IMG/VR virus record: IMGVR_UViG_3300011113_000415
Source: a virus
Lineage: Duplodnaviria > Caudoviricetes
Strand: one strand, 5' to 3'
DNA: 64,000 nucleotides
Below are positions 4,610 to 38,402 of the stretch, piece after piece. The notes below the pieces were generated by a model, which did not search any database, was not told where the DNA came from, and saw nothing but the letters and a program-made list of their open reading frames with translations. Both the position numbers and the translations under genes were made by a program. Every line of letters starts with the position of its first letter. Positions within the stretch are counted from its first letter, which is position 1.

Positions 4610-6621
4610 AAATACGTGACGTACTATTAGAATTCGCGCCTGGTGGTGGCGGTGACTCAGGTGATTACTTACGAGCCTTGGCTAGTGCCTGGTACAACGG
4701 CACATTTGATTCTGGTAGCCTGCAAAAAGGCATCAAGAGTCAACAAGATGTAGAACGCTTGTTGAATCGCGGCATTGTGTGTCCCGATGGTAAAACACGC
4801 AAACTACACATTGATTACAACTCAGACTTTGATGGTGTGGAAATCTACAGTGATGACTACTATGAACACGGTGACCTAGATGGCAATGACGGTCGCACAG
4901 GACAGCCCTGGGGACCATATGACCACATGGAGTTCAAAGACGAAGAACTAGACGAAGGTGTGGCGGAGGATACAGGTGATCAAAAGTTTGACTCAATGAT
5001 GAGCAGAATGACTGCCGAGCCAAAATATCCTGATCAGGACATGCCACCAACTAGTATTGCTGAATTGATACAATGGGCAGATAGGAACAATAAACCGTAC
5101 CATGAGTATTTTGCTCAATGGGCTAGAAGAAATGGATTTAAAAATGTAAATGATGCACTGGTATGGTTTGGTGACAATGTTGATCCATCTAATCCATGGG
5201 GACCAAAAGACTTTTTAGATCCTTTTGGCCGGCCCGCGGCAGAAGAACTAGAAGATGCTGCCAAGCACGATCCCAAGGCAGCAGAACTAATGAAGGTTTT
5301 TAGATGCTATGAAGAAATTGTATTTGATTGGCCCGATGAGTATCGTCAGATGAATATGCCAGCCTCAAGAAAAGGAACAGATGAAGGTGTGACGGAAGGC
5401 TTAGATCCTTACCGACTGGAACGCCTAGATCCACAGACACGCAGAGTGCTGACTCGCATGACCAAACACGCCGAACCCGGATCATGGCTCAGTGCCGCGG
5501 AGTCATATGCTATGCAACTGGGCCTAGAACAAAAAAATGAGAATCCACGAGCCTGGGAGCAAGAAGTTCAGTATTTTGTCGACCTTTACCGTCAATACAG
5601 TGGGCAAGGCGTGGCGGAAGGCTCCTTGAACGAATTTGCACCCGATAGCAACGACAGTGGTGAAGAAGATGCCTTACACCAGTACGCCAGAATGTGGTGG
5701 GCCGGAGATGAAGCCACACAAATGCAAATTGAACGTGCTCTAGCAAAAATGGGCTGGGAAATTGGTGAGGACGAAGGCAGTTACGACAACGGCGGTGTGT
5801 TTGTGGTACGTGCTGGCGACGTCAACGGCAATAGTTACATTTCATGGCCCGCAGAAGAACTAACAGAAGGCTCGGATCCCTGGGGTTCCCAAGGACGCTA
5901 CGTAGGCGACACAGGACCTGCACAAATATCTACCGCAGTCAAGAGAACCTCATTGAAACCAGGTGATCAAGTCATATACAAACCCACTGAACAACGTGCT
6001 CGTATAGAATCCCTGAGCCGAGACAGCACTCAAGCACGAATTCACATAGCAACTCCCATGGGTGGCCGGATTTTTAACTGCCAAACATCTGACCTAAAAC
6101 AACTGGCCAACGAGACTGAAATTGACCGACTGAAAAATCTTGCTGGTATCAAAGAAAGTCATGACCTTTGCAATGTTTGCGGACAAACACCTTGCAACTG
6201 CACACATTTGTCAGAAGAGTTTGATTTGATAGAATCAATTGTGGAGAAGATTGCTGTCCACAACGGAGTGGACGCAGACATGATCTGGGAAGATTTAGAA
6301 AGTCTCAGCGATGATGAATTGTATGTGTTTGCTGTGACCAGCGAACCCATAATGGAAGACTGGCAAAAGGTCAACAAACAGGATCGTACCTCGGGCATGA
6401 GTCGCAAGGCTGTAAAAGCCTATCGCAGAGAGCATCCAGGATCAAAACTAAAAACTGCTGTGACCACCAAGCCTTCAAAACTCAAGCGTGGTTCGAAGGC
6501 CAGCAAGCGACGCAAAAGTTATTGCAGTCGCAGTCGTGGACAAATGAAAATGCACAACATATCTTGTGCCAAAACTCCTGACAAGGCCATTTGCAAGGCC
6601 CGACGTCGTTGGAACTGTTGA
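4606..6621 (+). CDS. Modular cassette polyprotein (putative virion internal/cargo protein)
   Basis: Leader MKIRDVLLE; three GV[AT]E linkers; duplicated EFAP...W..G module; SH3/KOW-like segment; basic Cys-containing tail. Confidence 0.75.
   Translation: MKIRDVLLEFAPGGGGDSGDYLRALASAWYNGTFDSGSLQKGIKSQQDVERLLNRGIVCPDGKTRKLHIDYNSDFDGVEIYSDDYYEHGDLDGNDGRTGQPWGPYDHMEFKDEELDEGVAEDTGDQKFDSMMSRMTAEPKYPDQDMPPTSIAELIQWADRNNKPYHEYFAQWARRNGFKNVNDALVWFGDNVDPSNPWGPKDFLDPFGRPAAEELEDAAKHDPKAAELMKVFRCYEEIVFDWPDEYRQMNMPASRKGTDEGVTEGLDPYRLERLDPQTRRVLTRMTKHAEPGSWLSAAESYAMQLGLEQKNENPRAWEQEVQYFVDLYRQYSGQGVAEGSLNEFAPDSNDSGEEDALHQYARMWWAGDEATQMQIERALAKMGWEIGEDEGSYDNGGVFVVRAGDVNGNSYISWPAEELTEGSDPWGSQGRYVGDTGPAQISTAVKRTSLKPGDQVIYKPTEQRARIESLSRDSTQARIHIATPMGGRIFNCQTSDLKQLANETEIDRLKNLAGIKESHDLCNVCGQTPCNCTHLSEEFDLIESIVEKIAVHNGVDADMIWEDLESLSDDELYVFAVTSEPIMEDWQKVNKQDRTSGMSRKAVKAYRREHPGSKLKTAVTTKPSKLKRGSKASKRRKSYCSRSRGQMKMHNISCAKTPDKAICKARRRWNC
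4954..4968 (+). repeat. GVAE linker repeat
   Basis: gaaggtgtggcggag = EGVAE. Confidence 0.85.
5383..5400 (+). repeat. GVTE linker repeat
   Basis: gaaggtgtgacggaaggc = EGVTEG. Confidence 0.85.
5605..5622 (+). repeat. GVAE linker repeat
   Basis: caaggcgtggcggaaggc = QGVAEG, followed by SLNE. Confidence 0.85.
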
Positions 6622-6623
6622 CC

Positions 6624-7052
6624 ATGAGACAGTTGATCAATCTAGTAGAAGCAGTGGAAAAGGGCTGTCCCGTTGCCACACACGATATCACACTGAATCT
6701 CAAGAATCGACAAAAGGCCATTGACGACTATCACTACGGCCCAGCCAATCCTTTAGAACCCGGAGACTATTGGAAGCAGGCCGCCCGTCGTTGGCACGTA
6801 AGTGAAAAAATTATAAAAACAATGAAATGTGGAAATTGCGCGGCTTTTGATGCCAGTGACAGCATGCGTGAGTGTATTTCGGCGGGCATTAAAGGTGATG
6901 ACAAGAACATTGATTCAGCGGCTACTATAAATCTCAGTGACCTTGGCTATTGTAATTTTTTACACTTTAAATGTGCAGGTTCAAGATCTTGTTCGGCTTT
7001 TGTAGTTGGTGGACCTATCACTGAAAAAGATAAAGGTAAAAAGGCCAACTAA
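6624..7052 (+). CDS. Cys-rich hypothetical protein (HiPIP-like Cys spacing)
   Basis: ATG 6624 MRQLINLVE; CGNC...YC...C....C pattern. Confidence 0.6.
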   Translation: MRQLINLVEAVEKGCPVATHDITLNLKNRQKAIDDYHYGPANPLEPGDYWKQAARRWHVSEKIIKTMKCGNCAAFDASDSMRECISAGIKGDDKNIDSAATINLSDLGYCNFLHFKCAGSRSCSAFVVGGPITEKDKGKKAN

Positions 7053-7808
7053 ATGATTGCTAGAGACATTGTGGAATCTAGTGGCTACAGTTTGGCAGGC
7101 AGTTACACGCCTGATCTAGTGTTCAGCAAACTGTGGCTGGCCCGTGAATTAAAACACATATTGCAACAACAGGGTATTGATTCAGTACCAGTTGCTTATA
7201 TTTTGGGTTCATGGTACAGCAATCTCAGCACAATTCTACGCAAGACAGGTGTGCCCTTAGACAAAATTGTGGATGTAGAGCGCCGGAAGGAATGGTTAAA
7301 GACAGGCCAGCAATTACAACAAGACATGAACATCACAGGTGTAGAACAAATGCAGGCCGATGCTAACGAAATAGATTATAGACAACTTCAACAGCCCGGC
7401 ATAGTAATCAATACTTCAACCAATGATATTCCTGATCACGGATGGTTTGATAATATACCGTCTGGCACCATTGTGGCACTACAAGGACGTGATCATGTGC
7501 TACCCGGTGCTGAACACACATATAATTCGCCCAACGATCTATTACAAATGTATCCCTTGGAAACTGTGCTGTATTCAGGCACCTGGAACCTAGAAGATCC
7601 AGAAACTGAGTATCAGCGTAGCATGGCAATAGGTATCAAGGGTGCAAATCAATTGCGAGAACTACAGTTCCTGGGTTCAACCTGCACCAAGGACTGCTCG
7701 GGGCATCGTGCTGGCTACAACTGGTCCAAGCGCAAAGGCCTAGTTCACGCCGCATCCTGGAGTCCCAGTTTCAACAAAGGTGCCGCCTTGGCAGTGGCCG
7801 GCAAGTAA
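7053..7808 (+). CDS. Methyltransferase-like protein with leader and basic Cys tail
   Basis: MIARDIVES leader; ILGSWYSNL / DVE / QADANEIDY / INTSTNDI resemble a Rossmann SAM fold; tail after LRE: CTKDCSGHRAGYNW. Confidence 0.55.
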   Translation: MIARDIVESSGYSLAGSYTPDLVFSKLWLARELKHILQQQGIDSVPVAYILGSWYSNLSTILRKTGVPLDKIVDVERRKEWLKTGQQLQQDMNITGVEQMQADANEIDYRQLQQPGIVINTSTNDIPDHGWFDNIPSGTIVALQGRDHVLPGAEHTYNSPNDLLQMYPLETVLYSGTWNLEDPETEYQRSMAIGIKGANQLRELQFLGSTCTKDCSGHRAGYNWSKRKGLVHAASWSPSFNKGAALAVAGK

Positions 7809-8534
7809 TCACAGTCGGGTGTAAACAAAATACAATCTTTCATTGGCTTCACGTTTAAATGTATTCAATTGTAATTTATATCGTTCAGCAAATTCATTTG
7901 CTACTTCAAATGTCCAAGGAAAAATATCCACGTACGGTCCAGTTCTGTGCGGAATACCTGGATTGGCTCGTAGATAAAAGCGCCCACCTACCCGAAGCAA
8001 ATTTACACAGTGAGCAAAACGTTGTTCTATTTCATCTCGTGAATTAAAGTTGATTGAGCCCAAGGCCATGATTACATCGTACTGGTGGTTTACTCTATAT
8101 TCCAAAATATCAACTTCATAATCTGCGCAGTTATTGTACGGGTCAATTCCTACCAAATTCTGTATGCGTCCTTTGAAAGGATGATAGCCACAGCCCACGT
8201 CCAACACCCGTTCAGGATTTAATCGATTGATTTCATCCGCCAATTCCCAACCAGTGTGTTCATAGTCGCCAGTGCGCGGCTTCCATATTTCTGAAAAGAA
8301 ACGCAAGATATAGCGTTCACTCAGATCATCGGTGATTTCTCGTAATGTACCCACATAATCACAGGGCAAACTGAGTTCTGCGTCTATAGCGTCTCGGAAC
8401 TTTCTATAACGTGCCGGAGTCCAAGGTAAGTCTTGTACCTGGGTATCAGCGCCGATAGAAATATTTGCATACTTAGGTAAATTAAACGCAGATTGCAAAT
8501 TTTTTTGTAAAAGGTTAAAAATTTTTAAATTCAT
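7809..8534 (-). CDS. Class I SAM-dependent methyltransferase
   Basis: VLDVGCG motif I, VGIDP, YDVIMALGSINF, LRVGG. Confidence 0.75.
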   Translation of the reverse strand: MNLKIFNLLQKNLQSAFNLPKYANISIGADTQVQDLPWTPARYRKFRDAIDAELSLPCDYVGTLREITDDLSERYILRFFSEIWKPRTGDYEHTGWELADEINRLNPERVLDVGCGYHPFKGRIQNLVGIDPYNNCADYEVDILEYRVNHQYDVIMALGSINFNSRDEIEQRFAHCVNLLRVGGRFYLRANPGIPHRTGPYVDIFPWTFEVANEFAERYKLQLNTFKREANERLYFVYTRL

Positions 8535-8546
8535 AGAAATTTTTGG

Positions 8547-8576
8547 TAAATAAAGTTGATTTTCAAATACTATTTA
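8547..8576. promoter_or_regulatory. Divergent putative late promoters
   Basis: TAAATA at 8547-8552 (+) and TATTTA at 8571-8576 (TAAATA on -) between divergent genes. Confidence 0.45.
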
Positions 8577-8586
8577 AGGAGTTTCT

Positions 8587-9564
8587 ATGTCAATCAAAAA
8601 ATTTATAATCGCCGCACTACTAGTGCCTGTACTGGCTTTTGCCTGGGAGCCTGTCAAGCCAGTCACAGTTATTATTGGCAACACACCCGGCGCTGGAAAT
8701 GAAATGGCCTTTAGAAAACTGGCCGAAATTGTACAAAAGCGAAATCCCAACTTTGTTTATGTTGTGCAAAACATTCCTGGTGCAGATTCAGTTATTGCCA
8801 ACAATAAATTTTTGGAAGCGCCCAATGACGGATATACTATCAACTTGCCCAGCCACATGAGCAGTTATGTCACAAATGATATCTGGGAAAAGAATTTAAA
8901 GAAGTACAATTATGACAGTTTTGTAGACGTGCTGACCATGGGCAAAAGTCCACTGGTCTTGGTTGCATCAGTAAAGAGTGGAATTGAAACCCCACAAGAC
9001 TTTGTGAAGTATATACAATCTGGAAGAAACATCAATATAGCCATTGGTGGTGGCGCACATCGCACAGCATTTGAATATTTGATGGAAAAAGGCCGGGGCA
9101 ATCGAGACGCTGTTCGTTCGATCAAATTCAATGGTCCTGTGCCTGCGCTACAAAGTGTTGGACAGTGGGATGGACGAACTGGAACTGAATTTGGTATCAT
9201 GCCTATCGCTGTGGCCAAAGCATTGATTGATGCAGGCAAAGTAAAACCCATTGGATTTACAGGCACTAGGAAAATGGCACAATTCCCAAATGTACCGCTA
9301 TTAAACACAGTTGCTCCGGGCATCAATGTGTATGCGGCTTGGTCAATCGAATTGCCGCCAGGAACTAACAAGGACATTGTAGAATGGTATCAACGTGAAT
9401 TTTCAACTGCAATTCGTTCAGCCGAATATAGAGAATACACAGATGCCAATGTTATATTCTACTCTGAAGATGAACTCACACCAGCAGGTCTTAAAAAGCA
9501 CATGGATGAATTACGTGCGTCATTTATTCCTGTGCTGAGTCGAATTGATTTAAGTAAAGAATGA
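8587..9564 (+). CDS. Tripartite tricarboxylate transporter substrate-binding protein (TctC/Bug family)
   Basis: Signal peptide; KPVTVIIGNTPGAGNE, VVQNIPGADSVIA, APNDGYTI, FPNVP, PPGT matching TctC hallmarks (P..PGG..D, VENkPGA, PDGYT, PDVPT, P.GTP). Confidence 0.85.
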   Translation: MSIKKFIIAALLVPVLAFAWEPVKPVTVIIGNTPGAGNEMAFRKLAEIVQKRNPNFVYVVQNIPGADSVIANNKFLEAPNDGYTINLPSHMSSYVTNDIWEKNLKKYNYDSFVDVLTMGKSPLVLVASVKSGIETPQDFVKYIQSGRNINIAIGGGAHRTAFEYLMEKGRGNRDAVRSIKFNGPVPALQSVGQWDGRTGTEFGIMPIAVAKALIDAGKVKPIGFTGTRKMAQFPNVPLLNTVAPGINVYAAWSIELPPGTNKDIVEWYQREFSTAIRSAEYREYTDANVIFYSEDELTPAGLKKHMDELRASFIPVLSRIDLSKE

Positions 9565-10181
9565 AATATATCTTTGTGGCCGGCGCACCAGGCTCTAAAT
9601 GGTCGAGTGTAGTTAAAAATATCTATTATTCACCAGATATTGACAGATCTGATTATTCAGATGCACGTACCTATTATCACGATGCGTCAGGAAAATACGA
9701 CTTGATGCATCTGGGTGCATATTTTGACCCTGGAATGGAATTTGGCAATTTCTTTGATCAATTGGATCAGTACACAAAAGAACAATGTGAAACAGAATTT
9801 GATAGACCATTTTTGGGCACAGGTATACGCATTTTAAAAAGTCACGTGTTTGCCAATCATATTGATTATATCAAACAGACCTGGCCCGATTGTCCTATAG
9901 TGCTAGTGCATCGTGACGATGACGCTTGTTTGGGCTGGTGGGTCAAGTGCGGACATTTTGACATCACATATCCATTGTATCACGATTATTATCAAAACCT
10001 ACGAACCATGGCCGGTATAATTCGAGATCAAAATGAAGGTATACAACAGGCCGCATGGGATTATCCACGCAGACAGCCTCAGACCAATCGCGAATTGGCC
10101 AGGATTTTGGCCATTGCAGAACCGCCTGAGGGCTACGAACAACACTATATACAACACAACATTCGAGTGAGAGTAATATGA
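9561..10181 (+). CDS. P-loop/sulfotransferase-like protein
   Basis: IFVAGAPGSKWSS loop; ILKSH and IVLVHRD segments typical of the sulfotransferase fold. Confidence 0.5.
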   Translation: MKYIFVAGAPGSKWSSVVKNIYYSPDIDRSDYSDARTYYHDASGKYDLMHLGAYFDPGMEFGNFFDQLDQYTKEQCETEFDRPFLGTGIRILKSHVFANHIDYIKQTWPDCPIVLVHRDDDACLGWWVKCGHFDITYPLYHDYYQNLRTMAGIIRDQNEGIQQAAWDYPRRQPQTNRELARILAIAEPPEGYEQHYIQHNIRVRVI

Positions 10182-10828
10182 ATTCCAGTTGGGACATCAG
10201 CCGAGCATTAAGTACCTATCATTTTGATAGCCAAATCATTGATCAACCCCAAGATGTTGTACACTATTTGGGTCGCATCGAACCCACGTGGCTGGCAGAT
10301 CTTGAGGATATTGTGGCCAATTCCAGGCCTGCAACCTGGGCCACACGTGGTTACAAAGGCGAAGGCATTGAAGCACCGTCAGAAGAACTAGAACGAGAAC
10401 TGTATGATTTGACACGACACGGCATGAGTACAGATTTGCCAATCACACACCTAAACTGGCGCATACCCGAAAGTCTGCAACGCATCAGCGACGCATTTGC
10501 CTTGGATTCTTGCATGGATCGCATACATGTTCAGCGTCCCGGAGAAGTGTGGAATAGACACATTGACAAATTGGCCAAGTGGGCGCCAGATCATCCTGAC
10601 ACTGTCATGCGAATCATGATACAACTCACAGACTGGCAGCCAGGGCAGTTTTGGGAATACGGCAATTATCACTACAATCACTGGCGTGCCGGAGATGTCA
10701 CAACATTTGACTGGGCCAACATTCCGCACTGCACAGCCAATGCTGGACATCATGCCAGAGTCACACTTCAATTGACCGGAATTAAAACAGCCGCTACCAT
10801 GGATTATCTAGCACAATTGCCGCTATGA
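10178..10828 (+). CDS. 2OG-Fe(II)/cupin oxygenase (Asp/Asn beta-hydroxylase-like)
   Basis: RIHVQRPGEVWNRHID (HxD), distal H in PHCTANAG, R in ARVTLQ. Confidence 0.65.
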   Translation: MNSSWDISRALSTYHFDSQIIDQPQDVVHYLGRIEPTWLADLEDIVANSRPATWATRGYKGEGIEAPSEELERELYDLTRHGMSTDLPITHLNWRIPESLQRISDAFALDSCMDRIHVQRPGEVWNRHIDKLAKWAPDHPDTVMRIMIQLTDWQPGQFWEYGNYHYNHWRAGDVTTFDWANIPHCTANAGHHARVTLQLTGIKTAATMDYLAQLPL

Positions 10829-11448
10829 AGACTTTGTTGATCATGACAGGGCCGCAAGGTTCGGGCAATCACATGTGGTCAAAAATCTTTGCCTTGCATC
10901 CTGAAGTTCACGGCTGGCGGGCCCTGCTGGATCAATATTGGATAGGTCACGACCAAGAACCTTTTGCCAAGTACTGGGCCAATCCTGATTTATTAGAGAG
11001 TTTTGAATGGCAACACCGCTACTATGTGACGTCTATCAGTGTGCCTTACATGAACAATGGCACTGCAACCAAGCCCAACATTGTGCGTTTTGCCGCCTGC
11101 GCCATGGGAGCAGGATTGCGAGTCAAGATTGCTATCTTGGGACGTGATCGCAATATTGTCGATTATCAACAAATACGGGTGCGCGGAGCCAGCACACATG
11201 AACAGGCCTTGGCTGAATATCAAAAGTTGACATCTTGGCAACCCACATATTTGAGTTATGAATTGTTGTACATGTATGGCAGTGACTATTTGCGTCGATT
11301 GAGTGATCAATTAGAATTTCCAATTGCCTACAATGATCCCAGACTAAAAGAAATCATGGCCGAGGACACAAACAGTAAATATTTTACGGCTATTGATTAT
11401 CACCCTACAGATGATTTAGCACGCTACGCTTCAAGGAAACACCGATGA
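10825..11448 (+). CDS. P-loop/sulfotransferase-like protein
   Basis: IMTGPQGSGNH loop; ILGRD; YLSYELL. Confidence 0.5.
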   Translation: MKTLLIMTGPQGSGNHMWSKIFALHPEVHGWRALLDQYWIGHDQEPFAKYWANPDLLESFEWQHRYYVTSISVPYMNNGTATKPNIVRFAACAMGAGLRVKIAILGRDRNIVDYQQIRVRGASTHEQALAEYQKLTSWQPTYLSYELLYMYGSDYLRRLSDQLEFPIAYNDPRLKEIMAEDTNSKYFTAIDYHPTDDLARYASRKHR

Positions 11449-12287
11449 AAACCACCCGACGCATATTGATAATGGGCCTGCCAGGAGCAGGCAAAACTTA
11501 CTTTGCCGAACGACTAAAAAAATATTTAGAAGATCATATCAAACCCATAAATGAACACAGTCTGCGACCCATTGCAGATGCACAAGTCTCTGTGACCTGG
11601 TTCAATGCTGATGACATACGCAAAAAGTACAATGACTGGGATTTTTCACACGAAGGTCGCATACGTCAAAGTATCCGCATGCGAGACCTGGCGGATGAGT
11701 CTGGTTCTGATTATGCCATTGTGGACTTTGTGGCACCGCTAGTGGAAATGCGCAACAATTTCAAAGCCGACTGGACCATCTGGATTGACACTATAGAAAA
11801 AGGTCGCTTTGAAGACACAAATAAGATATTTGTGCCACCCGAAGTTTATGATTTCCGCATTACAGAACAGGCCGCAGAAAAATGGTCAGAATTTGTAGGC
11901 GAGCATATTGTGGAAAATAGACGAAGACCCGTTTTTGACTGGCAAAAGGAAACTGTGCAGATGCTGGGCCGCTGGCAACCTTGGCATCAAGGACATCGTG
12001 CCTTGTTTGAACGTGCTATTGCCAAGACCGGACAGGTTGTGATACAAATACGTGACTGTCAGGGCTGGCAAGGAACCAATCCCTTTGCCATAGAACAAGT
12101 TAAATATTTCATACAGCGGGACCTAGATCCTGTATATCAAGGACAGTATGAAATTCAAGTTGTTCCTAATATTGTTAATATCACTTACGGTCGCGATGTC
12201 GGTTATCGTATCGAACAAGAGTCCTTTGATGAACAGACTACCAATATCTCAGCGACCAAGATAAGAAAGGCCATGGGCCTTGAATAA
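11445..12287 (+). CDS. Fusion: adenylylsulfate-kinase-like P-loop kinase plus HxGH nucleotidyltransferase
   Basis: GLPGAGKT, NADDIRK, DFVAP, FEDT..IFVPP (CysC-like) then MLGRWQPWHQGH and ISATKIR (HIGH/KMSKS-type). Confidence 0.75.
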   Translation: MKTTRRILIMGLPGAGKTYFAERLKKYLEDHIKPINEHSLRPIADAQVSVTWFNADDIRKKYNDWDFSHEGRIRQSIRMRDLADESGSDYAIVDFVAPLVEMRNNFKADWTIWIDTIEKGRFEDTNKIFVPPEVYDFRITEQAAEKWSEFVGEHIVENRRRPVFDWQKETVQMLGRWQPWHQGHRALFERAIAKTGQVVIQIRDCQGWQGTNPFAIEQVKYFIQRDLDPVYQGQYEIQVVPNIVNITYGRDVGYRIEQESFDEQTTNISATKIRKAMGLE

Positions 12288-12504
12288 GTACCACGTGAGA
12301 TTCAATACCAAGCACAATGGTTCTGAACTAGTATGGCGTGTGTTTGAAAATGGTATTGAACACCTAGCCAAAGATGTAAGATTGGTGGGCGAAACCTTTA
12401 CAGAATGCACACACGAACATGGCGAAACCAAATGGAATATCGCCTGTGCGGGCCGTTTAATATGGGTAGATAACGTAGCGGTAATTGTGACCGGCAAGGA
12501 CTAG
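12280..12504 (+). CDS. Hypothetical protein
   Basis: 74 aa ORF overlapping the previous stop, operon-like. Confidence 0.55.
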   Translation: MNKYHVRFNTKHNGSELVWRVFENGIEHLAKDVRLVGETFTECTHEHGETKWNIACAGRLIWVDNVAVIVTGKD

Positions 12505-12530
12505 CCAACCCACGAGACCCTGACTGCAAC

Positions 12531-12536
12531 TAAATA
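12531..12536 (+). promoter_or_regulatory. Putative late promoter motif TAAATA inside a small palindrome
   Basis: caactaaatagttg immediately before ATG 12542. Confidence 0.5.
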
Positions 12537-12541
12537 GTTGA

Positions 12542-12985
12542 ATGTGGATCTTACACTTTCTTCCTGATTCAGTTATTGTATGGTTTTGCAATATCCTGCT
12601 CCTAGCGGGCATTGTGGCCACTATTGCAGGTTTTTTTGCACATCGCATTCCTGGACTTTGGCAGTATCAACTAGCATTCAAAATAGGTGGCATTTTGCTG
12701 TTGGTCTTGGGTGTTTATTTCCGTGGCGGATTGGCCGTGGAACAGGAATGGCGCGAGCGTGTGGCCGAAGTTGAAAAACGATTGCAAGTGGCCGAAGCAC
12801 AGGCTGCCGAAGCCAATCAACAAATAGAAAACAAAACACAACAACGAGTCACACAAATTCGTCAGCGCATGACCTACATCAAACAGTATGTGGATCGAGA
12901 AGTTGTACGATACAACGATCAATGCCAGATTCCTCAGGCATTTGTTCGTGCTCACAATCAAGCCGCGGAAGCACCTGCCAAATGA
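12542..12985 (+). CDS. i-spanin-like (Rz) membrane protein
   Basis: N-terminal TM helices then coiled coil; followed by a lipoprotein. Confidence 0.6.
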   Translation: MWILHFLPDSVIVWFCNILLLAGIVATIAGFFAHRIPGLWQYQLAFKIGGILLLVLGVYFRGGLAVEQEWRERVAEVEKRLQVAEAQAAEANQQIENKTQQRVTQIRQRMTYIKQYVDREVVRYNDQCQIPQAFVRAHNQAAEAPAK

Positions 12986-13245
12986 AATATGTTTTGCTTG
13001 CTCTAGTGTTGTCGGGCTGTAGCACAGTGGTTCCTGTCACAGCCAAATGGCCTGATCCTCCAGGCAAAGGCGCAATGACAGCATGTCCTCATTTGCAAAA
13101 ATTAACAGATGGCGCAAAATTAAGTGATGTTGCAAACACAGTGTCGGTAAACTATAACACCTATTATGAGTGTGCAGTCAAAGCAGATGCCTGGCAGGAG
13201 TGGTATCAAGTTCAAAAGCACATATTTGAAGGTGCTGGTCGATGA
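12982..13245 (+). CDS. o-spanin-like (Rz1) lipoprotein
   Basis: ATG 12982 MKYVLLALVLSGC lipobox; Pro-rich mature part. Confidence 0.65.
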   Translation: MKYVLLALVLSGCSTVVPVTAKWPDPPGKGAMTACPHLQKLTDGAKLSDVANTVSVNYNTYYECAVKADAWQEWYQVQKHIFEGAGR

Positions 13246-14228
13246 AAATCTCTGATGTGTTGACAGAAGCAGTGCCTGTGTCGGCACCATCAAATGTGGG
13301 TCGCGACTACATCAACATGCTGAACTTTGTCAAAAGCAGTGGCCTGGAAAACGTGCCGCAAGATCAGCAGGTGGCAGTGGCCTTGTTTAAAGAACTGCAA
13401 AAGCAACAGCAAAAGAACACACAACTAGGGCGTGAACTCAGTGCCGCAGAGCGGCGCATTGATCAAGCCATGCAAAGCGATGACCTGCGTGATCAAGAAT
13501 TGGCCTCACACGAAGCCGAACTTGAACGTGAACGTGGTGAAATTGAAAAGCAACAACAAAAAATGGGTCAAATTGATCAAGCCTATGCAGGTCGTGCGCA
13601 GGCCAGTGAGCGTCAAATGCAGGCCTTGACAACACAGTTGGCTCAATTGAAAGACAAACCAGGTGTGGACAAAAGCACCGCAGAACAATTGCAAAATCAA
13701 ATTGAGAAATTGCGAAAAGAAGGCATTGGTCAAGACAAATTAAAAGAACTGCAAAAGAATATTGAATCAATTCAAAGCATGCAACAGGTAGATGATTCGG
13801 TAATTCGAGACCTGGTTGCCAAAATTCAGTCTGCAGAGTCTATTGCCGCTGACGCAGTCCAAACCAAACAAAAATTAAGTCAGGACCTGGAACTCAAGAC
13901 CCAGGCAGCCTTGGACCAAGTGGCACAAATGCGACAGGATTTGCAAAGATTACAACAAGTTGAGAAGAAAGTGGCCAGCCTTGATAAAGAACTAAGTGAT
14001 CTGGAAATTGAATACAGCGACACTACTAAATCGGTCATGGATCTTGAACAAAATGTGTATCGCATAGACACTGCAATGACGGCAAGGAATCAGGCAGCCG
14101 CTGCCAATATAGCACGACAAATAAAACAAAATCCTCAGGCAGCGGCAACACAAGTACAAAAAACCCCGGCGTTAGAGCCATTGGCCGAATCGAGTTTTCG
14201 CAAATTAATTCGATGGGCCACCAAATAA
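13242..14228 (+). CDS. Long coiled-coil protein with capsid-targeting-like leader
   Basis: MKISDVLTE leader; Q/E/K-rich heptads; C-terminal LAE/SSFRKLIRW. Confidence 0.7.
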   Translation: MKISDVLTEAVPVSAPSNVGRDYINMLNFVKSSGLENVPQDQQVAVALFKELQKQQQKNTQLGRELSAAERRIDQAMQSDDLRDQELASHEAELERERGEIEKQQQKMGQIDQAYAGRAQASERQMQALTTQLAQLKDKPGVDKSTAEQLQNQIEKLRKEGIGQDKLKELQKNIESIQSMQQVDDSVIRDLVAKIQSAESIAADAVQTKQKLSQDLELKTQAALDQVAQMRQDLQRLQQVEKKVASLDKELSDLEIEYSDTTKSVMDLEQNVYRIDTAMTARNQAAAANIARQIKQNPQAAATQVQKTPALEPLAESSFRKLIRWATK

Positions 14229-14241
14229 AAAGGAAAAACAA

Positions 14242-14859
14242 ATGAGTACAATCTTGACAAAAGACCAACTAAAACAAATGGTCAAGAATCCTTACATTGA
14301 CCACTGGTACGACGTACTGGAACAATTGCTGGATGACTATGACATCAACACCCCGCTACGTGTTGCACATTTTGTTGCTCAATGCGCACATGAGTCAGGA
14401 AATTTTGTTTTTATCAAAGAAAATCTTAATTACAAGGCGGCCAGCCTACAAAAGATTTTCTCGAAGTATTTCCCCACAGCCGAATTGGCGGCACAATATG
14501 CCAACCGGCCCGAACAGATTGCCAATAGAATCTATGCCAATAGAATGGGCAACGGTTCGGAAGCGTCAGGTGACGGATATAGATACTGCGGGCGTGGCCT
14601 TATACAATTGACCGGCAAGGACAACTACACATTCTTTGCAGGCTCATTAGGCATCAGTGTGGAAGAAGCCTCAGAATATCTGGCCACATTTGAAGGTGCC
14701 GCACAAAGTGCCTGCTGGTTCTGGGAACAAAACAATTTAAATAGATTCGCAGATGCAAATGACGTCAAAGGGTTAACAAAAGCAATTAATGGTGGCTATA
14801 TTGGCTTAGATGATCGCATCAGTCATACAGAACATGCATTACACGTACTAGGTGCCTAA
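14242..14859 (+). CDS. Glycoside hydrolase family 19 endolysin
   Basis: FVAQCAHESG, ENLNY, YCGRGLIQLTGKDNY, TKAINGG. Confidence 0.9.
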   Translation: MSTILTKDQLKQMVKNPYIDHWYDVLEQLLDDYDINTPLRVAHFVAQCAHESGNFVFIKENLNYKAASLQKIFSKYFPTAELAAQYANRPEQIANRIYANRMGNGSEASGDGYRYCGRGLIQLTGKDNYTFFAGSLGISVEEASEYLATFEGAAQSACWFWEQNNLNRFADANDVKGLTKAINGGYIGLDDRISHTEHALHVLGA

Positions 14860-15852: not shown

Positions 15853-15873
15853 ATACATCACAAGGAAGAAATC

Positions 15874-16434
15874 ATGGCAGAACAAAAACAAGAAACAAAA
15901 CCATTATCACGTTCAGAACGTGAAGCACAAATCAAAGACAAGGCTGGATGGGTCATTGTTGTGCTGGCCGCACTACTGGCCATTAACACATACCTGGGTA
16001 ATGGCAACTCTGGAAAAGTGTTGAACAATACCATTGACGCCAACAACACCTGGGCATTCTATCAAGCCAAATCAATCAAAGGTACCTTGGCAGAAATGGC
16101 ACTTGATGATGCACTGGCACGCAAAGATGTGAACAAGGCTGCCGCTCTCAGCAAAAAGATTGCACGTTATGAATCTGACCCTGCCACAGGTGAAGGCAAG
16201 AAAGAACTAATGGAAAAGGCCCGTGGTTTAGAAGCAGATCGTGCGGTGGCAAAGTCACGTTCACCTTGGTATACATTTGCTGGATCCCTGTTTCAAATTG
16301 CCATTGTGCTATTATCTGCTAGTATCTTGGCAGTGAACAATCGTCTTTATGTGGCCAGTTTATGGGTAGGCGGTGCCGCAATGATCTTGATGAGCCAGGC
16401 CATTTGGCTTTGGATACCTACAATAGGACTATAA
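15874..16434 (+). CDS. Membrane protein (DUF4337-like)
   Basis: TM helices; NNTWAFYQAKSIK; LFQIAIVLLSASIL; TAAATA at 15850. Confidence 0.6.
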   Translation: MAEQKQETKPLSRSEREAQIKDKAGWVIVVLAALLAINTYLGNGNSGKVLNNTIDANNTWAFYQAKSIKGTLAEMALDDALARKDVNKAAALSKKIARYESDPATGEGKKELMEKARGLEADRAVAKSRSPWYTFAGSLFQIAIVLLSASILAVNNRLYVASLWVGGAAMILMSQAIWLWIPTIGL

Positions 16435-16435
16435 T

Positions 16436-17194
16436 ATGCCAATAAACATCGGCCCCGGAATTAACTTTGGTCCAGGTATCACAGTTGCCGCAGAGCCATC
16501 TCTCTACACACCATTAGCGGGCAGTCTACAGTTCAACGGGAGCAGTCAATATCTCAGTATGTCGCCAGGATTTGCATTGTCATCTGGGGCATATACCATA
16601 GAAGGTTGGTTCTACAACAACAGTTCTTATGCCACTCAAAAGGCATTGGTTGCCACAGATCAAACAGGTGCTCTAAGTCTATTCAACAATGATGCACAGT
16701 CATTTACCCTGGACAAATATGGTGGCTTGGGTGCCAGGACTTACACTTTTCCTACCAATACCTTGCAGATCAACAAGTGGCAGTACATCATACTCAACCG
16801 CAATGCCAGCACTCAGGTAGAAACCATGTGGGTCGGCACCTTTGTTGATACTAGTTCACTGGTAACTTGCAGTCGTGCTACCGCTGCCGCGGGTGGTTCC
16901 AGCATCAGTGGAGGAACACAGGTCAACAATCTTGATTACACAGGGGTCTGTAACTGGATAGGTAGATTCTATGGGGGATATTGGCCCGGTTATATCACCA
17001 ACCTCAGAGCCACCGTGGGTGCGGCTGTGTATGACAGTACCAACGCCACAGTGACAGCGCCGGCGGCACCGTTGACTTCGGGTGCAAATACCAAGTATTT
17101 AATGTTGGGTGCGGCAGTGACCACAGACACATCGGGCACACAAACTGTTACTAATAACGGTACAGTGACACAAACTTCAACTGTACCATTCTAA
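16436..17194 (+). CDS. Concanavalin A/LamG-like structural protein
   Basis: GSLQFNG, YTIEGWFY, WQYIIL, GYITNLR; Thr/Gly-rich. Confidence 0.65.
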   Translation: MPINIGPGINFGPGITVAAEPSLYTPLAGSLQFNGSSQYLSMSPGFALSSGAYTIEGWFYNNSSYATQKALVATDQTGALSLFNNDAQSFTLDKYGGLGARTYTFPTNTLQINKWQYIILNRNASTQVETMWVGTFVDTSSLVTCSRATAAAGGSSISGGTQVNNLDYTGVCNWIGRFYGGYWPGYITNLRATVGAAVYDSTNATVTAPAAPLTSGANTKYLMLGAAVTTDTSGTQTVTNNGTVTQTSTVPF

Positions 17195-17203
17195 GGAACA
17201 GCA

Positions 17204-17899
17204 ATGGCAATTGTAATAGGACCAGGAATCACAGTAGGACCAGGAATCTCAATAACTTCCGCAACTGCCTATGTGACTTCGGGACTTATTACCTATCTCG
17301 ATGCTGGTGACAACGCCAGTTATCCTGGCACAGGAACCACTTGGACTGACCTAAGCAGTGCAAGCAACAACTTTACTTTGACCGCCGGTCCTCCTTGGAC
17401 CAGTGCTGGCGCACAGAGTTATTTCACAATGGCTGGTGGATATGCTGTGAGTACGGCTATTTTGCCGGCTGCCGCATACACCAAGATAGCCGTGTTCTAT
17501 GTGACTGGAAACTTTCTAAACCTCATCAGTGGCGGAGTTACCAGTACTGATCATGCGTTCTGGGGCAACAACAGTCAATTTCTACAGGCCGGACATAACA
17601 GTGCTTGGTCAACTGTGGTTAGTCCTGTTACCACACCATTGAACCAATGGGTCTACGGAGCAGTAAGTTTCAACACCTCAACCGGTTGGCGACTGTATCT
17701 AAATCAAAATACTCCAGTTACCGATGCCAGCACAACCACATTCTCGCCCACGCCAGCAGTGTGTCAAGTTGGTGCGTATCAAGGCGGTAACTATCTAGGC
17801 GGACGAATGGCAGTGAGCATGATCTACAATCGTGTGTTATCAGACAGTGAAATCACGCAAAACTACAACTATTTCAAGACTAGATATAGTATAGCCTAA
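17204..17899 (+). CDS. Concanavalin A/LamG-like structural protein
   Basis: YLDAG..SYPGTGTTWTDLS, WVYGAV, MIYNRVLSDSEITQNY. Confidence 0.7.
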   Translation: MAIVIGPGITVGPGISITSATAYVTSGLITYLDAGDNASYPGTGTTWTDLSSASNNFTLTAGPPWTSAGAQSYFTMAGGYAVSTAILPAAAYTKIAVFYVTGNFLNLISGGVTSTDHAFWGNNSQFLQAGHNSAWSTVVSPVTTPLNQWVYGAVSFNTSTGWRLYLNQNTPVTDASTTTFSPTPAVCQVGAYQGGNYLGGRMAVSMIYNRVLSDSEITQNYNYFKTRYSIA

Positions 17900-17928
17900 A
17901 TCTCAATAAATATCTGAAAGGGGCTAGC

Positions 17929-18474: not shown

Positions 18475-18488
18475 AAAGGAAAATCAAA

Positions 18489-18772: not shown

Positions 18773-19564
18773 ATGCCCGATCACTATGCAACGCTAGGTG
18801 TTGCCCGAACTGCCACTGCCGATGAGATTAAACGGGCTTTCCGTAAGTTAGCCAGTAAGAATCATCCAGACAAAGGTGGTGATACTAAAAAATTTCAAGA
18901 GATCCAGGCCGCTTATGATGTGCTAGGCAATGTGGCCAAGCGAGCGCAGTATGACTCACCACAACCACAGTTCAGCAGTTTTGGTGGCGGTCCAAACTTC
19001 AATGCCAACTTTGATTTCAATACTATATTTGACATGTTTGGTGCTAGGTTCCAACAACCACAACCACAGCGTCCGCAACATTCCCGAATGACTCTTTGGA
19101 TTACACTTCAGGATGTGGCCAATCCTGGCCCTAGAACTGTGAGCATGGGCACACATTCGGGCACTCACAATGTTCAAGTCAACATTCCCGACGGTATTGA
19201 AGATGGTGATCATGTGAAATATGACAATCTGGCTCCAGGTGGTCAAGACCTAGTGATAACTTATCGAATACATCCCATGCCGCGCTGGCAACGCAACGGT
19301 GCTACTTTGATAACAGAAGCACCTGCAAGTTTCTGGTGCCTGGTTGCTGGAGGTGATGTTACTGTGAGTGATATATTGGGCAATCAATTGGCCCTGACAG
19401 TTCCGCCCAATACTGCACCCGGAACCTTGCTACGTGCTAGAGGTCGCGGCTTACCAGATCGTTCGGGCAACCGTGGGGACATGTTGGTTCGGTTACAGGC
19501 CGCACTACCCACCGCAGTTTCTCCAGAATTAATGGCTGCTATCAAACAAGAAATTGGTCAATAA
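18773..19564 (+). CDS. dnaJ: DnaJ/CbpA-like co-chaperone (no Zn finger)
   Basis: J-domain DHYATLGV...HPDKGG...EIQAAYDVL; G/F region; DnaJ C-terminal domain. Confidence 0.9.
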   Translation: MPDHYATLGVARTATADEIKRAFRKLASKNHPDKGGDTKKFQEIQAAYDVLGNVAKRAQYDSPQPQFSSFGGGPNFNANFDFNTIFDMFGARFQQPQPQRPQHSRMTLWITLQDVANPGPRTVSMGTHSGTHNVQVNIPDGIEDGDHVKYDNLAPGGQDLVITYRIHPMPRWQRNGATLITEAPASFWCLVAGGDVTVSDILGNQLALTVPPNTAPGTLLRARGRGLPDRSGNRGDMLVRLQAALPTAVSPELMAAIKQEIGQ

Positions 19565-19582: not shown

Positions 19583-19611
19583 TTGCTGGCCCAGCCTTAT
19601 TCATGTATAAT
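19583..19611 (+). promoter_or_regulatory. Sigma70-type promoter
   Basis: TTGCTG-17 nt-TATAAT with TG extension, upstream of clpA. Confidence 0.6.
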
Positions 19612-19645
19612 CAATTGTATGACAACCTCTTCAGGACACAATCAC

Positions 19646-21919
19646 ATGCAACACAACCCAGAAATCGAAAGTATTATTGAAAACGCGGTCAAAATCGCCC
19701 GCACATGGCAACACGAATATGTGTTGACCGAACATGTATTGTTGAGTCTTGTCAGACACGAACCATTCCGTCGTTGCTTGACCAAGTTTGGCACCGACGT
19801 GGCCATGCTAGAAACTGAACTGTGTGCTTACTTAGACAGTTGCCAAAGTCTAGTATCAGACGACCCAGATATCACACCAAGAAAAACCACTGCCCTGGAA
19901 CGCACATTCAATCGTGCGCTGACCCAGGTGTTGTTTACCGGGCGGCGAGCAGTGACCACAATTGACCTGTATCTGGCGCTCATGGGCGAAACCAACAGTC
20001 ACTCACACTACTTCTTGCTCAAGTATGGTGTGACCAAACAGGAGTTTGTGGAGTTTTGGCAGGCCAACTACAATCAAGGCGAAGCCCACAAACTGTCGGA
20101 CCGCCAGGCCACTGAAATCCTAGATGAACATTGCGTGAGTTTGACTGCCCTGGCCAAGAAAGATCGCCTGGAACCCTTGATTGGTCGTGCAAAGGAACTG
20201 GAAGAAATGATTGCTGTGTTGGCTCGACGCTTCAAAGCCAATGTGCTCATGGTAGGCGATCCTGGTGTGGGCAAAACCTGTATTGTGGAAGGCCTGGCAC
20301 AGGAAGTTGCCGCTGGGCGTGTGCCTGAGTTCCTGAAAGATCATGAAGTGTGGAGCCTGGAAATAGGCAGTTTGTTGGCAGGAAGCAAATATCGTGGAGA
20401 GTTTGAAGAAAAGTTCAAGATGGTGATACAGGCCTTGGAAAGTAAGAAGAAGTGTATCTTGTTTATAGACGAAGCACACACCATGCAGGGTGCTGGAGCA
20501 GGATCAAACGGTGCATTGGACTTTGCCAACATGCTGAAACCTGCTATCACTAGAGGCAGTTTGAAAGTTGTGGCATCAACCACCTGGGAAGAGTTCTATG
20601 AAAGTTTTGAAAAGGACCGTGCGCTGATGCGTAGATTCTACCGCTTGGCCATAGATGAACCTGACCGTGACACCACAGAAAAGATTCTGATCGGTCTTTC
20701 TCCCCGCCTTGAGACCTTTCACAATGTGCTGATCGATACCGAAGCCATGACAGCCGCAGTGGACTTGAGCGGTCGCTACATACACGACAAAAAGAATCCT
20801 GACAAATCAATAGACTTGTTGGATGCGGCCTGTGCTAGAGAGCGTGTGAAAGATCAAGGTCAACTCACAGTCACACGTGACTTGATCATGGCTCAAGTGG
20901 CCCGTGTGACCGGTGTGCCAGTGGATCGCTTGCAAAACGAACGTTCGACCAAGATTGTGGATCTTGAATCAAACATCAAGCAGAAGTTGTACGGTCAAGA
21001 TGCCGCTGTAGATTCAGTACTGGAACGTGTATATATCAACTTTTCCGGCATCGGCAATCCCAATCGACCAATGGCTTCATTCTTGTTCTTGGGCCCAACA
21101 GGTACAGGCAAAACAGAATTGGCTCGACTGTTGGCCTCAAACTTGGACATGCACTTGCTGAAATATGACATGAGTGAGTATCAAGAGCGTCACACTGTAT
21201 CCAGCCTAATAGGTGCTCCTCCTGGCTATGTGGGCTTTGAAGATGGCAACATTGGTGGCGGCAAATTGATTTCAGATGTGAGCAGGAATCCATTCAGCAT
21301 AATCTTGTTTGATGAAATTGAAAAGGCTCATCCTGATGTCAGCAATATCTTGTTGCAGATGCTGGATGAAGGACACATAACTTCCAGTAATGGCAAACGA
21401 GTTGATGTCAAGAACTGTATTATCATCATGACATCAAACTTGGGTTCACAGGATTCTGAAGCCAACAACATTGGATTTGGCAGTTTTGAAAAGACAGGCG
21501 AAGATGATCGAGCACTTAAAAACTTTTTCAAACCCGAACTACGTAATCGTATTGATCACGTCTGCAAGTTTGCCAAGTTGGACACCCTGGCCATCAAGAA
21601 AGTTGTGGTCAAGTTTGTGGACGAACTCAAGACAAGTTTGCATACAAAAGGCATACGCCTCGTGCTATCCGAACCAGTCATTGACCTGCTTGCTCTCAAA
21701 GGCTATGATTCGAAGATGGGTGCGAGACCACTCAGCCGCAAGATTGACGAGTTGATTCGTGTGCCGTTGAGCAAGAAGATCTTGTTTGAGAGACTTGCCA
21801 ACTGTGATGTGGTGGCCACTATAGAGGATGATGCTGTGCATTTTGCAATCACTCCAAGATCGGATGCAGTGACCACTATAGGTGATGATGGTATTGTCAG
21901 AATTGTCAATGAAGTTTAA
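19646..21919 (+). CDS. clpA: ClpA-type Hsp100 AAA+ ATPase
   Basis: Clp N-domain; GDPGVGKT and FIDEAH; GPTGTGKT and LFDEIEKAH; IGF loop; GARPL; no ClpB M-domain. Confidence 0.9.
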   Translation: MQHNPEIESIIENAVKIARTWQHEYVLTEHVLLSLVRHEPFRRCLTKFGTDVAMLETELCAYLDSCQSLVSDDPDITPRKTTALERTFNRALTQVLFTGRRAVTTIDLYLALMGETNSHSHYFLLKYGVTKQEFVEFWQANYNQGEAHKLSDRQATEILDEHCVSLTALAKKDRLEPLIGRAKELEEMIAVLARRFKANVLMVGDPGVGKTCIVEGLAQEVAAGRVPEFLKDHEVWSLEIGSLLAGSKYRGEFEEKFKMVIQALESKKKCILFIDEAHTMQGAGAGSNGALDFANMLKPAITRGSLKVVASTTWEEFYESFEKDRALMRRFYRLAIDEPDRDTTEKILIGLSPRLETFHNVLIDTEAMTAAVDLSGRYIHDKKNPDKSIDLLDAACARERVKDQGQLTVTRDLIMAQVARVTGVPVDRLQNERSTKIVDLESNIKQKLYGQDAAVDSVLERVYINFSGIGNPNRPMASFLFLGPTGTGKTELARLLASNLDMHLLKYDMSEYQERHTVSSLIGAPPGYVGFEDGNIGGGKLISDVSRNPFSIILFDEIEKAHPDVSNILLQMLDEGHITSSNGKRVDVKNCIIIMTSNLGSQDSEANNIGFGSFEKTGEDDRALKNFFKPELRNRIDHVCKFAKLDTLAIKKVVVKFVDELKTSLHTKGIRLVLSEPVIDLLALKGYDSKMGARPLSRKIDELIRVPLSKKILFERLANCDVVATIEDDAVHFAITPRSDAVTTIGDDGIVRIVNEV

Positions 21920-25588: not shown

Positions 25589-25602
25589 CGGTAAATACAC
25601 TC

Positions 25603-36751: not shown

Positions 36752-37425
36752 GTGACGATATCTACAGCATCCTCCACCGCCTGGACTTGATTGAGGGAAA
36801 AATTACTCCCGCCACAGTCAAAAAAGGCCTGAACGCACAACAGAAGTCAGTGCCACAGATGCCGGCACTGTTCAAAATGCCCAAGCAAGGTGCTGTGCTG
36901 GGTGGCGATCCCAACAAGAAAGCAAGTTCGGCTGGTTACATGTTTGGTGATGATGTAGAAGTGGGCCAAATGCCCTTGGCAGAGACCATGGCCGAGATTG
37001 AAGAAGACATGATCAGCAAGGTCAAGAAAGACCTCACACACTATCTAGATCAACTGGCAGACAAAGTCAAAATAGATCAAGACCTCAAAGACAAAGCAGT
37101 CCGAGACATCGAAGATGACGATCCCACAGATCCTGACCGCCAAGAAGAAGATGCGGAAGTAGATGAGATGCATGGCACACAAGGCCAAATCTCCACCATA
37201 CCAGAACCTGCAACATCACCTGTAAAAACTATTCCGTTAGAAGATGGCACAGTGCTGGAAATACACGGTGACCAACGGCGTGGGTTTACCATTCACGCAG
37301 GCGGCCGTAGCATGCCTTCACGGTTTCGAGAACTAGATGAAGCCGAAATGGCAGTGAATCTATACCGTGCTAGACGTCCGGCTGCTCGGCCAGACTCTAA
37401 TCCGGACTACGTGGAAGAAGCATAA
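36748..37425 (+). CDS. Acidic hypothetical protein
   Basis: 225 aa; LDLIE leader-like start; ends DYVEEA. Confidence 0.65.
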   Translation: MSDDIYSILHRLDLIEGKITPATVKKGLNAQQKSVPQMPALFKMPKQGAVLGGDPNKKASSAGYMFGDDVEVGQMPLAETMAEIEEDMISKVKKDLTHYLDQLADKVKIDQDLKDKAVRDIEDDDPTDPDRQEEDAEVDEMHGTQGQISTIPEPATSPVKTIPLEDGTVLEIHGDQRRGFTIHAGGRSMPSRFRELDEAEMAVNLYRARRPAARPDSNPDYVEEA

Positions 37426-38402
37426 TGATACTGAACGAATTTTTTAATTTACCCCAAGTGTTTGAAAAGGACATGACCGAAGTTCAAAGTCAGCATACTG
37501 ACATGACTGTGGCACAACAAGTATTCAAAGACAATCCCAACATTGACCACGAAGATGACATATTGAATGCGGCATTTCCCTATGTGGTCGAACTAGTCGG
37601 CAGTCGCAAACGTGCCAACTACATGTTCAACTACGATGAAGACTTCCCCAGTGATTTGATCGGTGCCTATAGATATCTACAAAGAGACCAACATGATGTG
37701 GGCTTGGAGGAAGGCGAACCTGGCGACCTAGAACACGAATTAGAAAAGCAAGATTATCAGCGCAGACAACAGCGTGATAGTGATGCAGAAAAAGAATTAA
37801 ACAAACAGCAAGGTGTGGCGGAAGGCACGGATGAACTAGCAAAACAATATGGTTGGGCATACAATCAAGGCGAGTACGGAGCATCAATGACGCATCCAAA
37901 ACACGGTCGCATTTCGCTTAGTTCTCCAATTACCAGTAGAAGCGGAGATACCGCAGTTGAACGTGAGTGGACACATAATAATGCCAGTGGTGTTGGTGAT
38001 AGATCATTAGCACAGCATTTGCAAAGTTTGAAAGAGCAAGATGTGGCAGAAGGCATCTTTGGCTCTAAGCCAAATCCGGTGCTTCCCTTAGTTGACAAAA
38101 TTGCCAAGTTGGCCGGAGGACTCACTCCACAAAACGTTGAAGTTGGTAAACAAATTATTCAGGCCAATGTTAGAAATATCCAACGCATGTTGAGCCCACA
38201 AATCAAACCCGGTGTTGAGATTATCGAAGCCAAAGGCGACTATGTGCCACCTAAAGAAGCCGACTATGGTCCAGAATATCAGGCCATGGTAAAACGTGTG
38301 GGTCAAAAGGCCCGAGCACAAGAAAAAGCCAAACAACAACCGCCAAAAGCACCTGTGCGTGAAAGCCGTCTAGCATTGTTGAAACACATCATCCAATCAT
38401 AA
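37425..38402 (+). CDS. Cassette polyprotein
   Basis: MILNEFF leader; QGVAEG and QDVAEG linkers; IIE/AKGDY and VRE/SRL boundaries. Confidence 0.7.
   Translation: MILNEFFNLPQVFEKDMTEVQSQHTDMTVAQQVFKDNPNIDHEDDILNAAFPYVVELVGSRKRANYMFNYDEDFPSDLIGAYRYLQRDQHDVGLEEGEPGDLEHELEKQDYQRRQQRDSDAEKELNKQQGVAEGTDELAKQYGWAYNQGEYGASMTHPKHGRISLSSPITSRSGDTAVEREWTHNNASGVGDRSLAQHLQSLKEQDVAEGIFGSKPNPVLPLVDKIAKLAGGLTPQNVEVGKQIIQANVRNIQRMLSPQIKPGVEIIEAKGDYVPPKEADYGPEYQAMVKRVGQKARAQEKAKQQPPKAPVRESRLALLKHIIQS
37809..37826 (+). repeat. GVAE linker repeat
   Basis: caaggtgtggcggaaggc = QGVAEG (consensus copy). Confidence 0.85.
38037..38054 (+). repeat. DVAE linker repeat
   Basis: caagatgtggcagaaggc = QDVAEG. Confidence 0.8.

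Follow-up and report, generated by a model that had tools for sequence, protein, structure and literature searches.

The DNA considered here is a stretch of 64,000 nucleotides from a virus of the class Caudoviricetes (IMG/VR record IMGVR_UViG_3300011113_000415), referred to below, at its full length, as the window. Four of its genes, all on the plus strand, contain copies of a short peptide linker, QGVAEG or a variant of it, that recurs between protein modules (Table 1). An earlier note on this DNA had listed 11 copies and proposed that the linker acts both as a maturation-protease site and as a joint at which cassettes are exchanged in frame. All 11 copies are present at the positions given there, lie in the coding frame and are confined to these four genes. 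The longest gene encodes a polyvalent protein whose cassettes include an Arr-like module, an ADP-ribosyltransferase and a GNAT module. With Pfam, ADPrib_exo_Tox and Amidoligase_2 scored over the cut-off in this protein, GNAT and NTP_transf_2 scored slightly under it, and the HExxH motif is present.

Table 1. Linker-bearing genes, cassettes and linker copies in the window (G001, G002 and G004 are relatives; mismatches are to the 18-mer consensus)
Feature	Coordinates	Strand	Remarks
Multi-module gene, 671 aa	4606..6621	+	leader MKIRDVLLE, three linkers, C-terminal DUF6321 module
Polyvalent protein, 2306 aa	25603..32523	+	nucleotidyltransferase, HExxH zincin, amidoligase, then three linker-bounded cassettes
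Multi-module gene, 651 aa	32520..34475	+	leader MRAREFVRE
Three-module gene, 325 aa	37425..38402	+	leader MILNEFF, shared with the small core-position gene next to the G001 protease
Arr-like (YLWHGS) cassette	30574..30990	+	between two linkers
Cassette, 164 aa	33807..34298	+	not in G004; inserted between ...MNE and NFADG..., ending TMAE
Linker EGVAED	4954..4971	+	4 mismatches
Linker EGVTEG	5383..5400	+	2 mismatches
Linker QGVAEG	5605..5622	+	1 mismatch; SLNEFAP next
Linker EGIAEG	30040..30057	+	end of homology with G001 and G002
Linker QGVTEG	30556..30573	+	
Linker QGIAES	30991..31008	+	
Linker QKVAEG	33201..33218	+	3 mismatches
Linker QGVAEN	33570..33587	+	module NMSHDKD... begins after its Glu
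Decayed linker QGVAAA	33810..33827	+	at cassette start
Linker QGVAEG	37809..37826	+	perfect 18-mer consensus
Linker QDVAEG	38037..38054	+	2 mismatches

The peptide pattern [QE][GKD][VI][AT]E[GSND] fits 10 of the 11 copies. It does not fit the copy at 33810, which reads QGVAAA and, despite this decay, marks a true cassette boundary. A six-frame scan of the 64 kb with [QEK][GKD][VI][AT]E[GSNDA] gave 10 matches in the four linker genes and none outside them. In 10 of the 11 copies, positions P3-P1 are V/I-A/T-E and the next residue is G, S, N or D. The repeat is equally evident in the DNA. As claimed, the 13-mer AAGGTGTGGCGGA is exact at 4955, 33571 and 37810 (0.00 expected) and GTGGCGGA is found in five linkers; the latter occurs eight times in the window (1.2 expected), the three occurrences outside linkers being at 12723, 17529 and 28008 (minus strand). 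The 18-mer CAAGGTGTGGCGGAAGGC is found at ≤3 mismatches seven times, always on the plus strand and in frame (0.02 expected), and relative to its consensus one window linker is perfect and ten carry 1-5 changes. The contrast in G+C content between cassettes was also given correctly (13/60 at 30301-30360 versus 30/60 at 28921-28980), and G+C at third codon positions ranges from 0.24 to 0.46 across modules. One claim was overstated, namely that a second L/I-x-E often follows the linker: a hydrophobic-x-Glu (h-x-E) motif lies within five residues in 16% of 290 copies compared with 8% at random positions. Overall, the linker repeat in the window is a real feature of the sequence.

The element extends well beyond the window. 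The exact 17-mer CAAGGTGTGGCGGAAGG is present in at least 120 IMG/VR contigs; the loci listed hold 162 copies, 159 of them in the longest open frame, and a reversed-letter control of the 17-mer gave a single match in IMG/VR. The IMG/VR copies read QGVAEG, their flanks are unrelated on both sides, and several often occur per locus, 150-500 bases apart. No 17-mer was found in cultured phages. Among the 120 matches listed from prokaryote genomes (596 Gb), each is a single copy, 108 come from genomes with at least 50% G+C and only 42 have QGVAEG in the longest open frame, so that these matches look like chance. Five large relative contigs encode DNA polymerases 71-85% identical to that of the window; of five smaller contigs, all rated 18-25% complete, two have the polymerase at 62-64%. 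Based on these polymerase matches, the carriers that could be placed belong to one clade of freshwater phages of ~300-350 kb, not to phages generally. Each of the five large relatives has 2-7 copies at ≤2 mismatches, which occur on the coding strand only, while the reversed control gave none; apart from two copies in one relative, G003, they are all within ~40 kb upstream of the polymerase. Window DNA itself is found in metagenomes of lakes, rivers and viral fractions, sampled in four studies or more. A near-identity search with the polyvalent gene gave no match among 50,697 records of cultured phages, the relatives found with tblastn are single-domain only, and cyanophage homologs of the DUF6321 protein are without the linker.

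Aligned copies reveal a sharply bounded conserved block, RAG CAA GGT GTG GCG GAA GGC, which occupies positions -3 to +17, encodes [K/E]-Q-G-V-A-E-G and has no conservation outside it. Its G+C content is 67% (12/18 bases), compared with ~41% in its loci. Synonymous codon choice was analyzed in 129 linker-like copies lacking the exact 17-mer and thus never selected by DNA, a set used because it avoids ascertainment bias; the same open reading frames (ORFs) outside linkers served as the background. At six positions the linkers depart from this background: Ala is GCG in 90/113 linkers (80%, background 7%), Val is GTG in 90/117 (77%, 22%), the first Gly is GGT in 103/112 (92%, 45%), Gln is CAA in 72/72 (100%, 73%), the last Gly is GGC in 49/68 (72%, 31%) and Lys at -1 is AAG in 23/34 (68%, 31%). 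The same tendency is seen across IMG/VR. The one-step variant GTG-GCA was found in 75 stretches, of which ~55 look like linkers when the list is read through. The variant GTT-GCA, which uses the commonest codons, was found in 33, of which ~5 or fewer are linker-like by reading and the rest are unrelated conserved proteins. There are thus ~5 or fewer linker-like GTT-GCA copies versus at least 162 consensus copies, whereas free synonymous drift would make GTT-GCA ~8 times commoner than GTG-GCG. Therefore, the synonymous positions do not vary freely and are held against the codon bias of the phages themselves, which bears out the proposed conservation at the nucleotide level. Synonymous identity is 59% in flanks and 85% in linkers, a contrast that is ascertainment-biased and on which we do not lean. 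The joint is constrained at both the peptide and the DNA level.

We then asked where module variation breaks. When window proteins are placed on the syntenic regions of relatives, homology stops at linkers, and it is there that G001 (the closest relative), G002 and G004 differ from the window. The polyvalent protein homologs in G001 and G002 end at residues 1479/1480, where the first linker begins. The Arr-like cassette (window residues 1651-1801, between linkers 2 and 3) resides in a different gene in G004, with a perfect QGVAEG on both sides; one of its neighbours there is a GNAT-like module with homology to window 32520-34475, and the other is a third module. For 265 joints with full flanks, 265 pairs share homology on one flank only and 7 on both (264 and 8 in a separate comparison). 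Cassettes on either side of the joint assort almost independently. A module-midpoint control, in which both flanks are shared in 16% of pairs versus 2.6% at linkers, is weak and confounded, since midpoints are not homologous positions. Internal ends of high-scoring segment pairs fall ≤3 residues from a linker in 18% of cases, compared with 5% for random positions. Recent exchanges are seen in 29 pairs, in which the DNA of one flank is ≥90% identical across 90 bases and that of the other has only random-level identity. The switch point is mostly at the edges of the 18-mer and otherwise inside it; in one pair of loci (L109 and L072) the sequences are 100% identical through the last linker base and unrelated from the next base on. 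As the earlier note had predicted, the breakpoints of module variation thus fall at the linker, and therefore the reading of the linker as a joint stands. Because synonymous sites are conserved, unrelated flanks number in the hundreds and recent exchanges break at or beside the element, it is the point of in-frame cassette swapping.

Two observations on metagenomic contigs belong here. A joint between two window linkers (30996 to 33566), seen in contigs of four freshwater runs, was rejected as evidence for a crossover because one side is 22 bases long and is probably the linker itself matching. In a river-metagenome contig (run X8), the linker ending at 33587 is followed by F-A-D-G-K-N-P-Q-D-K. 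This looks like a third context for the NFADG module, in which it directly adjoins the linker.

To consider the second proposed role of the linker, the starts of the proteins that carry it are informative. Their leaders are of the type M-[RK]-x-x-[DE]-[FL]-[IL]-x-E (e.g. MRAHEFIVE, MRAQEFITE, MILNEFF and MKTLREYINLIE); by the strict pattern, they are present in 41% of QGVAE ORFs versus 9% of others (odds ratio 6.9, p = 4e-15). The capsid-targeting sequence of T4 is MKTYQEFIAE, removed by a single cut beside it, and a leader resembling it is found in three of the four window linker genes. Several modules follow either an internal QGVAE or the leader of a stand-alone gene ending in h-x-E, the two being in register and the module starting right after Glu. 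With a slash after this Glu, the DUF6321 module follows the linker as TQGVAE/DWQKVN and the leader as MRATEFITE/DWNKVN, the NFADG module occurs as QQDVAE/NFADG and MRINELLE/NFADG, and the NMSHDKD module reads KQGVAE/NMSHDKD in the window and MRAQEFIVSE/NMDHSKD in a stand-alone gene of G004. Some genes have leader and linker fused (MRATEFIIE-GVAEG, MKTLRDYINLIETAQ-QGVAEG). The linker is thus positionally interchangeable with the h-x-E end of leaders, a comparative finding that suggests a gp21-type protease site. Proteases of the gp21 type and related giant-phage enzymes cleave on the C-terminal side of Glu, and T4 Alt is processed at each of its two ends (PMC5694885).

Leaders of this type also start window genes without QGVAEG, at 7053, 13242, 34472 and 35227 (MIARDIVES, MKISDVLTEA, MKVTDVILEA and MILRDFFTEA), and an internal MRQLINLVEA lies in 6591-7052; since such genes carry leaders too, the leader family extends beyond the linker family. 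Right behind the leaders of many linker-bearing proteins there is a small module, ANPAQQAAIAIA[MK]KK, which is present in window gene 35227-35850 and in many IMG/VR loci (L010, L083, L089, L105 and L116).

A candidate enzyme is encoded by related phages. Peptidase_S77, the family of the gp21-type prohead protease, was detected in 5 of the 15 related contigs searched, all but two of which are 18-81% complete, and both Peptidase_S77 and Gp23 occur among related contigs. The head module of G001 has a T4-like order: a small core-position gene, an acidic protein, the protease (L122:1447-2079), a scaffold and the Gp23 capsid protein. The first of these begins with MILNEFF, like the three-module gene of the window. 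The propeptide of the G001 capsid protein contains several [IL]-x-E candidate sites (LLE/S, LLE/G, ILE/N and LKE/N). The mature N-terminus of the T4 protein corresponds to about residue 31 of the G001 protein (a hand count on a PDB alignment), and the nearest candidate, ILE/N at 34/35, is about three residues off. Directly after the major capsid gene of G001 there is an HNH-type homing-endonuclease-like gene (L138:2609-3379).

Based on these data, we favour, at a confidence modestly above even, the interpretation that the element is an 18-21-base in-frame joint between independently assorting cassettes of uncultured freshwater T4-like jumbo phages, its peptide V-A-E/G being a putative gp21-type prohead protease site. 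Exchange would most likely proceed by short-homology recombination, the copies involved lying in genomes that co-infect a cell or are being replicated. Since all copies share the codon phase, recombination between them would fuse any two cassettes without a frameshift. Mutated copies would drop out of exchange and decay, and continual exchange together with this loss may keep the active copies uniform. The prohead protease would cut after the Glu of V-A-E/G, the equivalent of the h-x-E end of the capsid-targeting-like leaders. With such a cut, a single leader could carry several enzymes in series into the prohead, to be freed there and later delivered with the DNA; the linker proteins may accordingly be injected virion cargo. 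Genes and polyproteins would interconvert through a leader-for-linker swap.

Alternatively, the linker might be a recombination joint and a flexible spacer only, the modules remaining one uncut polypeptide. All the DNA-level results fit this explanation equally well, and some polyvalent proteins are delivered unprocessed (PMC5512222). Nevertheless, we consider it unlikely, because the end of the linker and the h-x-E end of removable-type leaders are in register for several different modules, and because conservation extends to the peptide as well as the DNA, always in one frame. We give still less weight to cleavage by another protease, i.e. the zincin of the polyvalent protein, the Lon-like protease encoded at 19583-21919 or a host enzyme, in which case packaging into the head would not be required. 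The genes for the first two are present in the window, and zincin autoprocessing was proposed for the polyvalent class (PMC5512222). However, the majority of linker-bearing ORFs do not themselves encode a zincin, the zincin protein of G004 is without linkers while neighbouring genes have them, and both the leaders and the residues at P3-P1 are as in the gp21 system. It seems quite improbable that the conserved nucleotides are a DNA or RNA signal with no part in exchange, such as a Shine-Dalgarno-like pause or re-initiation site or a protein-binding or Chi-like site. Such a signal would suit a block that is purine-rich, has two AAGG repeats and is 67% G+C in loci of ~41%, yet 159 of the 162 copies are in one reading frame inside ORFs with no enrichment seen out of this frame or in intergenic DNA, the block is not followed by a conserved start codon, and the breakpoints at the element would be left unexplained. 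Finally, we found nothing in favour of chance, or of the usual codon bias on a common peptide, as the origin of the motif; this explanation is refuted by the window counts, codon shares, reversed control and IMG/VR counts and has a negligible probability.

Several points weigh against the joint-and-protease-site interpretation itself. The loci were ascertained by the exact 17-mer, with at least 120 stretches listed. The crossover mechanism is a proposed one, and 18-21 bases are near the lower limit for homologous recombination. The four linker genes are located among replication and accessory genes with no head module around them. For the window phage, the protease is predicted from relatives whose DNA polymerases are 62-85% identical to its own, and one relative, G002, which is 343 kb long and rated 99% complete, yielded neither a Peptidase_S77 nor a Gp23 match even though its polymerase is 80% identical to that of the window. 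Either the completeness estimate is wrong or the head genes of G002 are very divergent. The published T4 site is L/I-x-E, so that Val at P3 is an extrapolation, and the HExxH zincin offers an alternative enzyme. Cleavage and capsid packaging of the linker proteins are predictions from sequence. We conclude that the DNA side of the interpretation is well supported, and that the protease and packaging side is plausible.

Parts of this arrangement are familiar from other phages. T4 internal proteins and Alt are comparable in the MKTYQEFIAE-like leaders, the boundaries right after Glu, the Peptidase_S77 of relatives and the Alt-like ADP-ribosyltransferase cargo. They differ in being separate genes cut once, whereas here many modules share one ORF, the site is internal and DNA-conserved, and cleavage is predicted only. 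In PeSL (promoter plus stem-loop) cassettes of T4-type phages, short conserved repeats bracket variable cassettes and are crossover points for shuffling (Arbiol 2010, PMC2839356); analogous repeats are known at T-even internal-protein loci (Repoila 1994, cited in PMC2839356). The likeness is in the short conserved repeats flanking variable cassettes of T4-type genomes. However, PeSLs are intergenic and move whole genes, while the linker is a coding joint of 18-21 bases that lies inside ORFs in one frame, moves protein domains and, as a 21-base block, has no conserved flanks. The glycine-rich motifs of the gp38 adhesins of T-even phages are also small conserved in-frame motifs between variable segments, which are swapped by in-frame crossovers (PMC3157838; Tetart 1998 cited there). 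Unlike the linker, a single joint across many unrelated genes and enzyme cassettes, they form the structural core of one domain in one gene family. Polyvalent proteins (Iyer et al. 2017, PMC5512222) are matched by the 2306-residue protein, which joins nucleotidyltransferase, zincin, amidoligase, ADP-ribosyltransferase and GNAT in one polypeptide; the word 'linker' is absent from the text of that paper, which proposes zincin autoprocessing. The giant phages phiKZ and SPN3US likewise cleave their head and ejection proteins after Glu, in some of them at more than one site (PMC5694885), yet the protease is of the S80 family and the motif is S/A/G-x-Glu; the text read reports no DNA-conserved joint or cassette shuffling. 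The earlier note had called the arrangement integron-like. This is acceptable as an analogy, but the 21-mer is not an inverted repeat and its flanks are unconserved, unlike a structured attC, and PeSLs and gp38 motifs are closer. A tyrosine-recombinase integrase, as in integrons, was not encountered, although no search aimed at integrases was made.

The neighbours of the linker genes in the window include an exonuclease, sugar enzymes, a family-B DNA polymerase (39176-41836) and the Lon-like ATP-dependent protease mentioned above, a protein of 778 residues (phrog_4871, E = 2e-235) encoded in the middle of the accessory region. Close to it, 18773-19564 encodes a 263-residue protein beginning MPDHYATLGVARTATADEIKRAFRKLAS, for which PHROG matches give unknown function only; its start looks like a DnaJ J-domain. 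Two adjacent paralogous genes (16436-17194 and 17204-17899) each start with a repeat of the GPGI(N/T)xGPGI type.

The ingredients, namely the T4 capsid-targeting sequence with gp21, PeSLs and gp38 motifs, are known separately; their combination and its spread are not described in the searchable literature, in which we found no phage paper with QGVAEG or GVAEG. A broader proposal, to which we give slightly less than even credence, is that these phages possess an integrase-free system of in-frame exchange, in which a 21-base joint doubles as a head-protease site. Incoming cassettes would be automatically translated, packaged behind one leader, freed and delivered, and cassettes with intact joints may spread between co-infecting phages like selfish elements. 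As a simple sequence tag, the linker allows such cargo proteins to be recognized in metagenomes and the limits of their modules to be drawn, and it suggests a natural design for engineering in-frame cassette swapping together with capsid loading. If true, the proposal would reveal how large phages build up libraries of enzymes for host takeover and anti-defence and reshuffle them rapidly, with the protein domain as the unit.

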